Shown: piece by piece, positions 26,008 to 30,776 of the stretch | Layout: each line of letters opens with the position of its first letter | Position numbering within the stretch: the stretch's first letter is position 1 | Origin: an uncultured Actinomycetota bacterium | GTDB lineage: Bacteria > Actinomycetota > UBA4738 > HRBIN12 | Direction of reading: 5' to 3' | Length of the DNA: 64,000 nucleotides | Assembly (NCBI GenBank): GCA_963842295.1 | Contig: CAWJFY010000006.1 | Location: forward strand, 182,109 to 246,108 | Translations under genes and position numbers: made by a program | The notes under the pieces: model-generated | The model's input: only the letters and a program-made list of their open reading frames with translations | Told to the model about the DNA's origin: nothing | Database searches by the model: none

Positions 26008-27251
26008 GCACCACAACGCAGCACCCACGCGTCGCCGTCCTCGCCGTGCACACCTCTCCGGTCGATCAGCCGGGAACCGGCGACTCGGGCGGGATGAACG
26101 TCTACATCCGCTCGGTGGCGGAGCGTCTGGCAGGCCAGGGGGTCGAGGTGGATCTCTTCACGAGGTGCCGTGGCGGGGCCACGCACGATGTCCGTGAGAT
26201 CGCGCCGGGGATCCGAGTGGTGAGCACGAAGGGTGGTCCCTGTCATCCGCTGCCGAAGTCCGCGGTGCAGCGCTACCTGCCGGAGTTCCTCGGCGGGGTG
26301 CTGCGCGTAGCGAGAGAGGAAGGCAACCGCTACGACGTCGTTCACAGCCACTACTGGCTGTCCGGCTGGGTCGGCCGGGCGACGAAGGAGATCCTCGGCG
26401 TCCCTCTGGTGGCCTCGTTCCACACGCTCGGCAAGGTGAAGAACTACTCGCTCGCTCGGGGGGAGCTCCCGGAGCCCGCCGAGCGCCTCCGAGGGGAAGA
26501 GCGGGTGATCGGCGAGGCCGACATGATCCTGGCGCCGACGCCCGAGGAGGCAGGTCAGCTCGTGGGGCTGTACGGGGCGGATCCCGAACGGATCCGGATC
26601 GTTCCCCCCGGCGTCGATCACTCGATCTTCGTGCCGGCCGACCGGGCAGCGGCTCGCGCGCGGCTGCACCTGTCGGGTCTTCGGCTCGCCCTCTTCGTGG
26701 GTCGGTTGCAGTCCCATAAGGGTCCGGACGTCGCGATCCGCACGCTCGCGGAGGTGGTCGCCCGGGGCGGCGAGACGGCGGAGGACCTGGTGCTCGCGAT
26801 CGTCGGCGGTCCAAGCGGTGAGAGGGCCGGCGCCGAGGTCGCCCGGCTGATGGAGCTCGCGTCGGCTCTCGGCGTCGCCGACCGGGTGATGCTGTTCCCG
26901 CCGCAGCCGCACGCCCGTCTCGCGGACTTCTACTCGGCCGCCGACGTCGTGCTCGTGCCTTCGCGTTCGGAATCGTTCGGGCTCGTCGCCCTCGAAGCCC
27001 AGGCATGCGGCACACCTGTCGTGGCCTCGGCGGTGGGCGGGCTGCGGACGGTCGTCCGGGGCGGCGGGCTGCTCGTCGAGGGTCACGATCCCGCCGACCA
27101 TGCGGACGCGGTGCTCGCGGTCCTCGGCGATGCGGCGTTCGCGACGGCGCTCGGCACCGCGGGCGCTCGGGAATCACTGGGGTTCACCTGGGACGCCACC
27201 ACCGCGGAGGTCCGCGCCGTCTACCGCGAGCTCCTCGAGGCCGCCGCGTGA
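26004..27251 (+). CDS. mshA: D-inositol-3-phosphate glycosyltransferase (mycothiol biosynthesis)
   Basis: VHTSPVDQPGTGDSGGMNVY, HSHYWLSG, HTLGKVKN, ESFGLVALEAQACGTPVVA. Confidence 0.9.
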   Translation: MSTTTQHPRVAVLAVHTSPVDQPGTGDSGGMNVYIRSVAERLAGQGVEVDLFTRCRGGATHDVREIAPGIRVVSTKGGPCHPLPKSAVQRYLPEFLGGVLRVAREEGNRYDVVHSHYWLSGWVGRATKEILGVPLVASFHTLGKVKNYSLARGELPEPAERLRGEERVIGEADMILAPTPEEAGQLVGLYGADPERIRIVPPGVDHSIFVPADRAAARARLHLSGLRLALFVGRLQSHKGPDVAIRTLAEVVARGGETAEDLVLAIVGGPSGERAGAEVARLMELASALGVADRVMLFPPQPHARLADFYSAADVVLVPSRSESFGLVALEAQACGTPVVASAVGGLRTVVRGGGLLVEGHDPADHADAVLAVLGDAAFATALGTAGARESLGFTWDATTAEVRAVYRELLEAAA

Positions 27252-27799
27252 TCCACGGGGTTCGCGTGCTCCTCCGTCCTGTGGAGGAGCACGACTACGC
27301 CCTGATCCATGCCTGGCAGAACGACCCCGAGGTCTGGTGGCTGATGGACTACGAGGGGCCGTTCTCGATGGAGGACATCGTCGAGAGCGAGAAGCGTGCT
27401 CGCGAGGAAGGGCACCCGTACGTGATCGAGGTCGACGGGACGCCGATCGGACGGATCGGACTCAACGCCTTCCGGCGCCGCGACCGCATCTGCGCGCTGT
27501 ACATCCTCATCGGGGAACGTTCGGCCTGGGAGCAGGGGCACGGGACCGATGCGGTCGCGGCACTCGTGGACGAGGCGTTCGATCGCTTCGACCTCCATCG
27601 GGTGGAGCTCTGGTCGACCGCGGACAACGAGCGAGCGATCCACGTGTACGAGAAATGCGGTTTCGCCGTCGACGGGCGGCTTCCGGAGCGATCGTGGAAG
27701 GGCGGCGCGTGGGTCGACCGGGTCGTGATGTCGGTGACGCGCGAGGGCTTCGGAGCTTCGGCAGCGGCGACCGACCTGCGACGTCACCGGAACACCTGA
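27248..27799 (+). CDS. GNAT acetyltransferase (RimJ/RimL family)
   Basis: VLLRPVE...WQNDPEV...GHGTDAV...NERAIHVYEKCGF. Confidence 0.88.
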   Translation: MIHGVRVLLRPVEEHDYALIHAWQNDPEVWWLMDYEGPFSMEDIVESEKRAREEGHPYVIEVDGTPIGRIGLNAFRRRDRICALYILIGERSAWEQGHGTDAVAALVDEAFDRFDLHRVELWSTADNERAIHVYEKCGFAVDGRLPERSWKGGAWVDRVVMSVTREGFGASAAATDLRRHRNT

Positions 27800-27847
27800 A
27801 TCCTTCTCCCTTTTGTCACTTTTCCTTCCAGGGCGTCTACCTGCACA

Positions 27848-27905
27848 TTCGCGTCTGACCTGGGCGAACGCGAAGTTGACCTGCCTCGAGGCCGCCGGGT
27901 AGGTT
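27848..27905 (+). promoter_or_regulatory. SigA-like promoter (TTGACC-N18-TAGGTT) with upstream inverted repeat
   Basis: TTGACC 27876-27881, TAGGTT 27900-27905; TTCGCGT-N13-ACGCGAA at 27848-27874. Confidence 0.7.
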
Positions 27906-27912
27906 TCGCCTC

Positions 27913-28300
27913 GCTCCAAGCAGTCGAAGTGATCGACGCGAGAGGGCCGGACGAGCGGCCGAGACACCGCAAGGTGGACCGGACGCGAGGGACCCAGGAG
28001 GATCCGCGAGGATCCGAGCGGGACCCCGACCGCCGGAGAAGGTCGCGAGACCGGACCCGGAGGGCCCCGCCGGGAACATCGAAAGGTGAACCGGGCGGGG
28101 GGTCCGCGGAGGAAGGAGCGCCGCGAGGCGATCCGGAACCCGCGAATGGCGGAGGTGAGCCGCAAGGCGAACCATCGTCGGCGGTCCGGCAGCCGCGCGA
28201 AGAGAGCGGAGGTTGCTTGGGGCACCAGAGCCCGAGAGGCTGAAGGTGGTTGGGAGCTTCGGTTCCCAGCGAGCCGGAGGTCTCTCGGGTTCTCTCTTTT
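27913..28300 (+). ncRNA. Unidentified large structured non-coding RNA with six GNRA-capped arms
   Basis: 13-bp closing helix 27913-27925/28211-28223 with three G-U pairs; inner helix GCCGGAC/GUCCGGC; six GNRA hairpins; UUCG hairpin; terminator; no credible CDS. Confidence 0.78.
28271..28300 (+). terminator. Intrinsic terminator-like hairpin with U-rich tail
   Basis: GAGCCGGAG-GTCT-CTCGGGTTC (one mismatch) followed by TCTCTTTT. Confidence 0.55.
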
Positions 28301-28373
28301 CCGATCTCTTTCGCCCACACCTCATCCGGCTCGTCCCGCTCGTGGGCTCTTTTCCGCTAGCTTCCCTTGCGCC

Positions 28374-28994
28374 ATGACCGAGACGCCGAGCCGGCGCGAC
28401 CGGATCCTCGAGGCCGCGATGCGGGCCTTCGCGGAGCGCGGCTACCGAGGGACCCGTGTGGAGGACATCGCCACCGAGGTCGGCATCGCGAAGGGCACCG
28501 TCTTCCTCGACTTCGGGTCCAAAGAGGGACTGTTCCTCGAGGCTTTCAAGCGAGCCGTCTCCTCGCTCCCGGCATGGCTGGACGCGCCCGCCGATGTGGT
28601 CGACCAAGGGTTCTGGGCGGTGCTCGATTGGTGGCTGCAGCGCGCGGAGGAGCTCGTTGCCTCTGATCCGGTGCCGAACCGGGTCGCGCTCATCGCCCGG
28701 TACGACACGGGACTCGACATCCGCCGGCCGGTGGACCGGTTCATGCGGAGCGAAGATCCGTACGGGACGCTCGAGTTCGTCGAGTTCGGCGTCGGGCGCG
28801 GGGAGATCCGGGACGACGTGGATGCAGAGATGATCGCATCCACCCTGGATTGGATGGCCGAGCGCTTCCAGGACGCGCTCGTCTCCGAGGACTTCGATCC
28901 CGGGTTGATCCATCGGCGTCCCGAGCGGCGCCCGATGCGGATCAAGGAGTTCGTCGAAGTCCTCCGAGGCGGCATCGCGCCCCAGCCGGAATGA
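28374..28994 (+). CDS. TetR family transcriptional regulator
   Basis: RRDRILEAAMRAFAERGYRGTRVEDIATEVGIAKGTVFLDFGSKEGLF. Confidence 0.92.
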   Translation: MTETPSRRDRILEAAMRAFAERGYRGTRVEDIATEVGIAKGTVFLDFGSKEGLFLEAFKRAVSSLPAWLDAPADVVDQGFWAVLDWWLQRAEELVASDPVPNRVALIARYDTGLDIRRPVDRFMRSEDPYGTLEFVEFGVGRGEIRDDVDAEMIASTLDWMAERFQDALVSEDFDPGLIHRRPERRPMRIKEFVEVLRGGIAPQPE

Positions 28995-29019
28995 AGCCCG
29001 GCCTCGCTATCCTCGATCG

Positions 29020-29952
29020 ATGTCGCTCTCCGAGTCGGTCCTGCGACCATCGATCCTCCGGATCGCGGAGCATCCGTGGTCGCGCAGGGTCGTCACCGGG
29101 AGCCGGCCGGGACGAGCGGTCGCCTCCCGGTTCGTCGCGGGAGAGTCCCTCGAAGACGCGATGCGGGCGGCGGCGTTGCTGGATCGCCGGCGGATCGCGT
29201 CCATGCCCGACTTCCTCGGCGAGAACGTCCGGACGGAAGCGCAGGCAGAGGCGGCACGGGCCGCGTATCTTCAGGCGCTCGCCGCGATCGCGAACGCGAA
29301 GGATCTCGACTGCGCCATCTCGCTGAAGCCCACCCAGCTGGGGCTCGACATGTCGCTGGAGGCGTGTCTGGCCAATGTCGAGCCGATCGTCGATGCGGCC
29401 AGGAACTCGGGAACGGTCGTGATGATCGACATGGAATCCGTCGGATACGTCGATCCGACCTTCCGCGTGTTCCGGGAGGCGCACGCTCGCTACCCGAAGG
29501 TCGGCATCGCCCTGCAGTCCTACCTCCGTCGCACCGAGCGCGATCTCGCAACGCTGCCCCCGGGGTGCCGGGTCCGTCTCGTGAAGGGTGCGTATCTCGA
29601 ACCACCCGAGGCGGTCTTCACCAGCAAGCGCGAGGTGGACGCCAGCTTCGCGCGGCTGTTCACCACCCTCTTCGCCCGCGGCCACGCGATCGACGTTGCG
29701 ACGCACGACCCGCGGCTCCTCGAGGGCGTACGAAGGCGGGTGGACGCATCCGGCGAGGGCTGGTCACGGGTCGAGTTCCAGATGCTGTACGGTGTCCGCC
29801 GCGACCTGCAGGGCAGGTTCGCGGGGCAGGGATATCCGGTCCGGGTGTACATCCCGTACGGCACGGAGTGGTACCCCTACCTGACCCGTCGGCTCGCCGA
29901 GCGGCCGGCCAACGTGTGGTTCTTCCTTTCGAACCTGTTGAGGACAAGATGA
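29020..29952 (+). CDS. Monofunctional proline dehydrogenase
   Basis: RFVAGE, ISLKPTQLGL, IDME, VRLVKGAY, ATHD, EFQMLYG, YLTRRLAERPAN. Confidence 0.93.
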   Translation: MSLSESVLRPSILRIAEHPWSRRVVTGSRPGRAVASRFVAGESLEDAMRAAALLDRRRIASMPDFLGENVRTEAQAEAARAAYLQALAAIANAKDLDCAISLKPTQLGLDMSLEACLANVEPIVDAARNSGTVVMIDMESVGYVDPTFRVFREAHARYPKVGIALQSYLRRTERDLATLPPGCRVRLVKGAYLEPPEAVFTSKREVDASFARLFTTLFARGHAIDVATHDPRLLEGVRRRVDASGEGWSRVEFQMLYGVRRDLQGRFAGQGYPVRVYIPYGTEWYPYLTRRLAERPANVWFFLSNLLRTR

Positions 29953-30776
29953 CGGAACGTTCGATCGCATTCCTTGGCGGGGGCAGGATGGGCGAGGCGC
30001 TCATCGCAGGCTTGCTCCGCTCCGGCGGGCGGTCCACCGAGGAGATCCTCGTGACGTGCAGGCGGGAAGAGCGCGCCAGGGAGCTCACCGAACGCCACGG
30101 CGTCAGCGCGACGCTCGACAACGCGGAGGCCTGTCGGTTCGCGAAGGTCTTGGTCCTGATGGCGAAGCCTCAGGACTTCGAGACGCTCCTGCAACAGATC
30201 GCGGATCACGTGACGGTCGAGCATCTGGTGGTGAGCTTCGCGGCCGGGATCCGGACCTCCTTCGTGGAGCAGTCACTCGCGCCTGACGTCCCCGTCGTGC
30301 GCGTGATGTCCAACGTTCCCGTCATGGTGGACGAGGCCATGTCGGTGATCGCGCCTGGCAAGCACGCGGAGGACAAGCATCTGGCGGTGGCGGAGGAGCT
30401 GCTCGCCTACGTCGGCAAGGTCCTTCGCCTCGAGGAGCGCTACTTGGATGCCGTGACCGCCACGAGCGGCTCGGGGCCGGCTTACTTCTTCCTCCTCGCC
30501 GAGGCCATGATCGAGGCGTGCATCCTGCTGGGCCTCTCGCGCGACGTCGCGACGGAACTGATCATCCAGACGATGCTCGGTTCGGCCAAGATGCTTCGCG
30601 ACACCGGGACGCACCCGGTGGAGCTGCGTGAGATGGTCACCTCACCAGGTGGCACGACGATCGAGGCGATCCGCCACCTGGAGGAGGCCGGCGTGCGCGC
30701 CGCGTTCCTGAACGCGATCGATGCGGCTCGGAAACGAAGCGAGGAGCTCGCGCGCGGCGGCGACGACGACATCTAG
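29949..30776 (+). CDS. proC: Pyrroline-5-carboxylate reductase
   Basis: FLGGGRMGEAL, VRVMSNVP, TATSGSGPAYFF, VTSPGGTT. Confidence 0.95.
   Translation: MTERSIAFLGGGRMGEALIAGLLRSGGRSTEEILVTCRREERARELTERHGVSATLDNAEACRFAKVLVLMAKPQDFETLLQQIADHVTVEHLVVSFAAGIRTSFVEQSLAPDVPVVRVMSNVPVMVDEAMSVIAPGKHAEDKHLAVAEELLAYVGKVLRLEERYLDAVTATSGSGPAYFFLLAEAMIEACILLGLSRDVATELIIQTMLGSAKMLRDTGTHPVELREMVTSPGGTTIEAIRHLEEAGVRAAFLNAIDAARKRSEELARGGDDDI

Follow-up and report, generated by a model that had tools for sequence, protein, structure and literature searches.

A multi-arm structured RNA belonging to a family conserved at one syntenic locus in nearly all genomes of an uncultured order of Actinobacteria

We analysed a window of 64,000 nucleotides (nt) of contig CAWJFY010000006.1 from an uncultured Actinomycetota bacterium (assembly GCA_963842295.1); all coordinates below are positions in this window. 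Between a GNAT acetyltransferase gene ending at 27799 and a TetR regulator gene starting at 28374 lies a gap of 574 base pairs (bp), in agreement with the intergenic gap described by an initial annotation that had been made from the sequence alone. This intergenic region encodes, on the + strand, a stand-alone structured RNA about 310-390 nt in length; a conserved promoter region of its own precedes it and a terminator-like hairpin closes it. The RNA is the multi-arm variant (type A) of a family that is found at one syntenic locus in nearly all genomes of an uncultured order of Actinobacteria. Upstream of the GNAT gene, whose product is of the Acetyltransf_3 type (PF13302), lies a gene for MshA (TIGR03449, 464.7 bits, barely above the cut-off of 462.5), and the TetR gene is followed downstream by ProC. 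Throughout, f1-f52 denote families, g1-g29 genera, L numbers loci, X numbers sequencing runs, R1 and R2 covariance models and A1-A6 alignments.

When folded without constraints, the stretch 27905-28300 of the + strand has a minimum free energy (MFE) structure with a closing stem, a stalk, six GNRA-capped arms and a UUCG hairpin. Its energy of -219 kcal/mol compares with -184.1 ± 6.1 kcal/mol for 100 dinucleotide shuffles (z -5.74; 0 of 100 as good), while the reverse strand has a z of -1.03, with 15 of 100 shuffles as good. The test against shuffled controls that was proposed at the outset therefore came out clearly for the + strand (-5.74 against -1.03). Each arm is composed of a basal stem, a purine-rich internal loop, 3-6 bp and a GNRA cap, and the six-arm form makes an 8-way junction on the stalk, in which the largest internal loop measures 5x4 nt. 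The 13-bp pairing of 27913-27925 with 28211-28223 (including three G-U pairs), the CGCG/CGCG helix, the helix 27946-52/28184-90 and the six tetraloop hairpins (27965-76, 28000-15, 28041-52, 28077-88, 28119-30 and 28159-68) were all recovered as the initial annotation had drawn them. Its further arm and separate C(UUCG)G hairpin, on the other hand, turned out to be a single bipartite hairpin at 28227-28293. The parts of the RNA are as follows.

27913-27925, + strand: 5' strand of the closing stem (13 bp), from the MFE fold, with 13 of 13 pairs kept in 21 of 21 genus sequences
27929-27952, + strand: 5' strand of the stalk, with short helices, purine-rich internal loops, CGCG and GCCGGAC, from the fold and the genus alignment (helices 2 and 3)
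27955-27986, + strand: arm 1, GCAA loop, from the fold, with two pairs changed on both sides (helix 4)
27989-28026, + strand: arm 2, GCGA loop and AGGA/GAGC internal loop, from the fold and the genus alignment (helix 5)
28030-28063, + strand: arm 3, GCGA loop and AGAA/GGAC internal loop, with three pairs changed on both sides (helices 6 and 7)
28065-28100, + strand: arm 4, GAAA loop, with two pairs changed on both sides (helices 8 and 9)
28105-28144, + strand: arm 5, GCGA loop, from the fold and the genus alignment (helices 10 and 11)
28148-28179, + strand: arm 6, GCAA loop, with three pairs changed on both sides (helices 12 and 13)
28184-28207, + strand: 3' strand of the stalk, from the fold and the genus alignment
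28211-28223, + strand: 3' strand of the closing stem, from the fold and the genus alignment
28227-28293, + strand: conserved 3' hairpin, with a 15-bp base, a GAA/GGA internal loop, 3 bp, a bulge, 9 bp and a UUCG cap; four pairs changed on both sides in the genus alignment (helices 14 and 15)
28294-28303, + strand: U-rich tail, probable intrinsic termination site judged from its sequence and not called by the terminator scan

The full element was found by BLAST in 23 of 24 same-genus genomes at 83-92% identity. For the alignment of 21 sequences (A1), RNAalifold gave 113 pairs, with 99.5% of cells able to pair as against 33-47% when the partners were slid. Sixteen of the 113 pairs changed on both sides, compared with 6.7 ± 1.7 in shuffles, and 0 of 500 shuffles reached 16; because the sequences are close kin this figure overstates the significance, and the slid controls and the strand asymmetry agree with it. 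Conservation with covariation, which the initial annotation had named as a check, is therefore present in A1, where changes on both sides exceed those in shuffles. Within the genus the arm stems covary freely, the cap letters vary among GNRA variants and the loops remain purine-rich. The closing stem is invariant at this level; in the type B relatives described below, 6 of its 13 pairs are changed on both sides. A MAFFT alignment of 40 six-arm RNAs from several genera kept only the conserved handle and the six caps (47 pairs) and misaligned the basal arm stems. For this reason, the genus alignment was used for covariation and folds of single sequences for arm counts.

The RNA corresponds to none of the 4227 families of Rfam 15, as the initial annotation had supposed: the whole 64-kb window gave no match at gathering score. 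At E <= 10, the region 27700-28450 yielded seven chance-level matches, all of 19.4 bits or less, far below the cut-offs and none spanning the RNA body, and no match was obtained at E <= 1 in five loci of relatives. ARAGORN found nothing on 27000-29000. The genome has its RNase P RNA, SRP RNA and tmRNA above cut-offs on other contigs (C2, 211.2 bits; C11, 74.1 bits; and C7, 111.3 bits, respectively), which bears out the early statement that the RNA is none of these three. In the literature searched there was no paper describing this RNA, which is not proof of its being unpublished. The family is apparently previously uncatalogued, that is, new to the catalogues consulted.

A coding signal is likewise absent. 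In the longest + strand frame, the variable columns of the 21 same-genus sequences are spread over the codon positions as 44/45/44 and no frame is conserved, while 54 of 64 pairwise indel runs are single bases. The expectation that no conserved protein would be found in the region is upheld by this lack of codon periodicity and the mostly single-base indels, and the claim of a structured noncoding RNA on the + strand by strand-specific folding, covariation and the missing coding signal together. The element is single-copy in its genome.

Sequencing runs that contained a third or more of the sampled words comprised 14 DNA runs from seven studies and six metatranscriptome runs from four studies (a third to half of the words). 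The metatranscriptomes with the RNA came from soil, lake water and ice. Contigs of four RNA runs from four studies (X15, X17, X18 and X19) were aligned to 27000-29300. Two contigs are identical to the window, over 27932-28221 (X15) and 27933-28192 (X17), and contigs from X18 and X19 have 0-2 differences within 27929-28224. Word depths reached 15402 in X18, 563 in X15 and 554 in X19, although contig depth cannot rank genes. The flanking genes had contigs of depth 1-15 only, with many mismatches, and these derive from relatives. These contigs speak for the presence of the body as RNA in natural samples rather than for carried-over DNA. A transcript check had been proposed at the start; its first part, the presence of the body in RNA libraries, is thereby answered, while contigs give neither strand, ends nor expression level. 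The stretches 27847-27923 and 28232-28308 had no contig in all four RNA runs, and one contig ends in adapter at 28224. For the uncovered 3' end, the 3' hairpin might be removed from the RNA or, equally, the most conserved stretches might break assemblies.

Outside the genus, BLAST matched just the last 95 nt of the element, and upstream of those matches the same promoter, closing-stem strands and 3' hairpin surround a different core. A pattern scan of 185,579 species genomes returned at least 119 stretches; in-house scripts assigned at least 53 of them to the family and the others to chance matches within coding sequence. The members with titles among the matches listed are metagenome-assembled genomes (MAGs) of uncultured Actinomycetota, Actinomycetes or bacterium. 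No other module is conserved as widely as the 3' hairpin, whose model (R1) matched 140 of 151 genomes of the order, including 90 of 91 high-quality ones, in all eight families (f1, 78/79; f2, 3/3; f3, 2/2; f4, 1/1; f5, 2/2; f6, 7/9; f7, 25/27; f8, 21/27). In a genome draw at class level only the same eight families were present. Across the phylum, R1 matched 19 of 151 genomes, which outside the order belong to f11 (1/1) and f18 (7/10), with one weak match in f14. The gene order MshA-(GNAT)-RNA-(TetR)-ProC is syntenic across the family: by a hand count of 75 locus rows, MshA lies upstream in 70, GNAT in 46 and TetR downstream in 65, and GNAT also precedes the RNA in one f18 genome.

Two core forms share the promoter, the 13-bp closing stem and the 3' hairpin. 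The type B core is an unbranched rod of about 180-200 nt that is also found in other classes of the phylum. It has 62 predicted pairs and no branch point, and 96.4% of cells pair; 34 pairs changed on both sides compared with 16.2 ± 2.0 in shuffles, in an alignment that had been fitted to the model and so favours its structure. The model of this alternative core (R2, 203 positions) matched 15 of the 151 phylum genomes, in f2, f6, f7, f8, f1 (1/5), f11, f18 (8/10) and f52. R2 also matches the f3 and f5 loci and gives no match at the f4 locus, which carries a multi-arm core. Within f1, type A occurs in genera g1, g15, g16, g17, g19 and g29 (the last an unpublished genome) and type B in g18, g20 and g24; f4 also has type A. 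The f4 locus L204 (G027) carries a multi-arm variant on its minus strand (about 296-621), in which four or more arms are capped by GNRA; the arm array is therefore not confined to f1.

The genome tallies include the unpublished genomes G002, G005, G010, G029, G037, G052, G055, G056, G064, G074, G077, G099, G110, G155, G186 and G334, and the presence of the RNA in f52 is that in G334 alone. Alignments A1-A6 and models R1 and R2 contain no unpublished sequence. One locus of an unpublished genome, L028 (G029), was read and folded. L028, L171, L178 and L190 entered the classification into types A and B and were left out of the cap and arm counts.

Among 54 distinct type A RNAs, the number of arms was 0, 3, 4, 5, 6, 7 and 10 in 1, 1, 2, 11, 33, 5 and 1 RNAs, respectively. 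The array thus ranges from 3 to 10 arms with a mode of six (33 of 54), and the total body length from 225 to 446 nt. The 309 arms of these RNAs have the consensus GG-R-R-n-GCC-GCRA-GGC-G-R-R-M-C, and the caps counted in 60 RNAs were GCAA (126), GCGA (81), GAAA (22) and GUAA (6). Type B has a single small hairpin, GGGAAA-GCC-GUAA-GGC-CRAC, with which arm 1 of type A lines up when three RNAs of each type are aligned (A6). By these sequences, the type A arms arose by amplification of this hairpin of the type B rod, the ancestral core, the rest of which has been lost in type A.

Type B also has an apical loop of 9 nt (A5, columns 125-133), in which the central 4-mer is self-complementary in 27 of 34 sequences: GGCC in 19, AGCU in 7 and GAUC in one, with GGCU, AGCC and AGCG as possible intermediates. 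This palindromic loop suggests that type B may form kissing-loop dimers. Type A does not have the apical loop and multiplies the arm module instead. An amplified hairpin, an otherwise discarded core and a retained handle, taken with the type B palindromes, suggest that selection acts on the multivalent display of the hairpin, which type B would achieve through dimers and type A through tandem copies.

The region upstream of the RNA was compared over 60 distinct upstream regions aligned with MAFFT, and its conserved elements are the following.

27813-27819, + strand: upstream box TTGTCAC, invariant in the alignment
27836-27863, + strand: TCTACCTGC and TCTGACCTGG, a pair of conserved boxes that are spaced by about 20 bp and look like a -35 region
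27876-27905, + strand: putative promoter, with TTGACC (27876-81), an 18-nt spacer and TAGGTT (27900-05), both hexamers conserved family-wide

The columns of the TCTACCTGC and TCTGACCTGG boxes are conserved at 80-95% or more, and both boxes are also found in a genome from another family of the phylum (locus L183). Over 27813-27905, the TTGTCAC box is followed by three GACCTG-type boxes that resemble one another and recur at a spacing of about 20 bp; the third overlaps the -35 hexamer. This box architecture is highly conserved in the family and recurs in the other family of the phylum; the boxes may be a binding array for a regulator, to judge from their arrangement. The hexamers and spacer described in the initial annotation are in place, whereas its label of a near-consensus promoter fails by an E. 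coli-type consensus scan, which called 0 promoter-like and 0 terminator-like sites. Since simple scans of this type call neither, promoter and terminator were deduced from conservation, and the position of the transcription start is one that we infer.

A second short RNA candidate was found elsewhere in the same genome (G000:C4:310369-310465, or L153:1501-1597) as a weak R1 match (34.1 bits, E 9e-5); it has the hairpin base and an upstream TTGTCAC box in common with the RNA studied here. Most same-genus genomes have two R1 matches. Downstream, the ProC domains of the long frame 29076-30776 are confined to residues 297-558, and its first 308 residues have no Pfam match. The proline dehydrogenase that had been predicted there is consequently not borne out, as no such domain lies in these 308 residues, and the frame may be over-extended.

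The reading that we tentatively prefer, at somewhat less than even confidence, is that the RNA is a trans-acting multivalent scaffold or sponge for a protein. The arm would be the working unit and its copy number would matter. Acting in trans, the RNA would serve as a multivalent platform on which a single kind of partner, most likely a protein, is bound in several copies or by several of its subunits; this partner would recognise the combination of a GNRA cap, 3-4 bp and a symmetric internal loop rich in purines. The partner would be sequestered or scaffolded, as is the case with repeated-hairpin sponge RNAs, and the handle would give stability or 3'-end processing. RNA polymerase would be one candidate partner of several. 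The probable mode of action, that of a repeated-hairpin trans-acting RNA, is of an already known kind.

Several points weigh against the scaffold or sponge. The tetraloops (GCAA, GCGA and GAAA) and the internal-loop letters vary within the genus, and generic capping fits these data equally well. GNRA and UUCG caps, like GA-rich loops, are used by GC-rich organisms for no other reason than stability. The arms could be neutral or structural elaboration, with the function carried by the conserved handle. In addition, the library contigs are silent on strand, ends and expression level, and the arm counts come from in-house pattern and MFE scripts rather than a curated alignment.

A sponge of the CsrB kind, which the initial annotation had offered as one possibility, was rejected. 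The region 27913-28300 has 20 GGA motifs, a count that matches the earlier figure of about 20 and is only a mild excess over mononucleotide shuffles (13.2 ± 3.0). These motifs sit in stems and internal loops, while the hairpin loops are GNRA and UUCG. No CsrA gene (PF02599) was found at E <= 0.01 in the genome, which is 96.16% complete, although the E. coli, B. subtilis and T. maritima controls were detected. The genome also gave no match to the TROVE domain of Ro60/Rsr (PF05731), the partner of bacterial Y RNA.

A second reading makes the RNA a global regulator that binds RNA polymerase and tunes transcription capacity, as the lineage's functional counterpart of 6S, Ms1 or CoRP; we consider it unlikely, with a real chance nonetheless. 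Replacement of 6S was tested because all housekeeping RNAs but 6S were found in the genome and because Actinobacteria have lineage-specific RNAs that bind the polymerase. In the genome that has RNase P RNA, SRP RNA and tmRNA, the 6S model (RF00013) gave no match even at E <= 10, and none of the 79 f1 genomes had a 6S match at E <= 0.001. Of the 151 genomes sampled across the phylum, 56 had 6S, and among carriers of the studied RNA there was one sub-threshold match only (G200). The unbranched type B rod with its large conserved internal loops has the gross shape described for 6S and Ms1 in PMC4191392. The polymerase-binding RNAs of Actinobacteria, as characterised in PMC11077062, are non-homologous between lineages and 300-516 nt long. 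The high word depth of the RNA-body contigs hints at abundance, within the limit that contig depth cannot rank genes.

Within the order, however, 6S-like matches occurred in 18 of 151 genomes (f8, 12/27; f6, 5/9; f7, 1/27; f1, 0/79), at 28-42 bits against a cut-off of 46.4; three of these sub-threshold matches are in the unpublished genomes G037, G052 and G077. They lie apart from the locus of the studied RNA, at L200:1501-1620, L201:598-769 on the minus strand, L202:1501-1672 and in 15 further genomes. One of them folds as a 186-nt rod (z -4.88) with 6S consensus motifs. The matches in f8, f6 and f7 are probable divergent 6S RNAs. Since sister families have a probable 6S RNA in addition to type B, the studied family, taken together, is not simply the lineage's 6S; f1 may have lost 6S. 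The idea of 6S replacement by complementary distribution, seen in the phylum sample, was downgraded in view of the f8 and f6 candidates.

The architecture also speaks against a polymerase-binding role, since the six-arm form has no stalk bubble above 5x4 nt and the loops of type B, in contrast to those of 6S, keep their primary sequence from class to class. In one genome each of Streptomyces, Amycolatopsis, Nocardioides, Arsenicicoccus and Actinotalea, R2 gave no match at E <= 1, in a search that had no positive control; Streptomyces is a genus reported to carry Ms1. The synteny given for Ms1 in PMC9130861, a HAD-IB hydrolase beside an oxidoreductase, is not seen at the locus. The 6S/Ms1-like role put forward in the initial annotation is thus weakened by the missing large bubble in the six-arm form and by the probable 6S RNA found beside the family in sister families.

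Quite unlikely, in our estimate, is a third reading, by which the RNA is an RNA-only architectural or self-assembling molecule like ROOL, GOLLD and OLE, its GNRA caps docking into purine-rich loops or helices within or between molecules. The six GNRA caps and six purine-rich symmetric loops per molecule fit such docking, as does the retention of the GNRA fold through changes of its letters. Dimers in the ancestral form are suggested by the type B apical loop, in which three different palindromes account for self-complementarity in 27 of 34 sequences, and natural ornate RNAs form homo-oligomers according to PMC12286853. However, no recognised tetraloop receptor was identified in the RNA, a copy number of 3-10 is hard to square with one fixed closed assembly, and the palindromes belong to type B and not to the RNA of the window.

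A cis-acting leader, that is, a riboswitch or attenuator controlling TetR-proC through the 3' terminator hairpin, is very improbable. The RNA does lie 5' of TetR and its terminator-like hairpin ends 70 nt before the TetR start codon, but TetR is missing downstream in 10 of 75 loci with RNA and hairpin unchanged, and the hairpin base recurs in the second small RNA elsewhere in the genome. Inspection by eye for an antiterminator pairing found only an unconvincing 6-bp alternative. In the RNA libraries, identical contigs cover the RNA body, whereas the flanking genes have only low-depth mismatched ones. Moreover, two unrelated architectures replace each other as the core, an exchange that would be incompatible with a ligand-binding aptamer. 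A coding region, repeat array or mobile-element remnant, for which the long frames on both strands of this high-GC DNA might speak (for instance 27929-28243 on the + strand, 104 amino acids), is effectively refuted by the even spread over codon positions (44/45/44), the frequent single-base indels, the single copy at one syntenic locus and the strand-specific fold with compensatory changes. Functions other than the scaffold or sponge and these rivals take up the remaining probability.

A broader proposal, a sizeable possibility that we nevertheless hold to be doubtful, is that the RNA stands for a hitherto unrecognised class of abundant RNAs whose working part is a GNRA-capped, purine-loop array varying from 3 to 10 arms on a conserved handle, evolved by amplifying a hairpin of a kissing-loop-dimerising rod, and that the class would be a hub for RNA-protein or RNA-only assembly with no known bacterial counterpart. 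To our knowledge, besides rRNA and tRNA few bacterial RNAs are near-universal in a class-level lineage, namely RNase P RNA, SRP RNA, tmRNA and 6S RNA. The RNA described here behaves like a further housekeeping-like RNA in abundant uncultured soil Actinomycetota. The same handle bearing either a conserved rod or amplified hairpins is a natural experiment on the evolution of RNA multivalency and bears on the trade of valency by dimerisation for valency by tandem amplification. If a partner exists, the complex would be a new regulatory or architectural ribonucleoprotein, and if there is none, the RNA would form a new RNA-only assembly. The annotation of hundreds of MAGs would gain from a covariance model of the family.

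Among known systems, CsrB and RsmZ are likewise stand-alone RNAs with a variable number of repeated hairpin modules. They display GGA in hairpin loops and sequester one protein, CsrA or RsmA, multivalently. In contrast, the loops here are GNRA and the arms are nested within a closing stem around a junction. In the HIV-1 Rev response element, a long closing stem with purine-rich internal loops leads to a multi-branched junction whose arms, through purine-rich loops, bind several copies of one protein. The likeness is an architectural analogy only. That element is viral, has no sequence relationship to the studied RNA and bears arms that are not nearly identical copies of one module.

ROOL, GOLLD, OLE and raiA, families that are presumably included in Rfam, differ from the studied RNA, which has another architecture, another host lineage and a single chromosomal syntenic locus, and matches no Rfam model. 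They resemble it in being large and highly structured with many GNRA-type caps and a role that is structural or still undefined, and some of them form RNA-only oligomers, as stated in PMC12286853. 6S RNA (RF00013) is an abundant RNA that, like the studied one, stands alone and has its 5' and 3' ends paired; its rod shape is matched by type B. The studied RNA is unlike 6S in being longer (about 310-390 nt), in having no central bubble in the six-arm form and in giving no match to the 6S model. 6S is a rod, about 180-200 nt in length, that opens into a large bubble at its centre; the six-arm form has no equivalent of it, and type B is rod-like with large internal loops.

Ms1 and CoRP come from the same phylum and, according to PMC4191392, PMC9130861 and PMC11077062, are lineage-specific RNAs of 300-516 nt with sigma-A-type promoters that cannot be detected across lineages by sequence, and the RNA studied here resembles them in these respects. 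The comparison is one by description only, and Ms1 is described as a rod with a bubble and not a multi-arm junction. CoRP lies between tRNA genes, whereas the RNA of the window lies between mshA/GNAT and TetR/proC.

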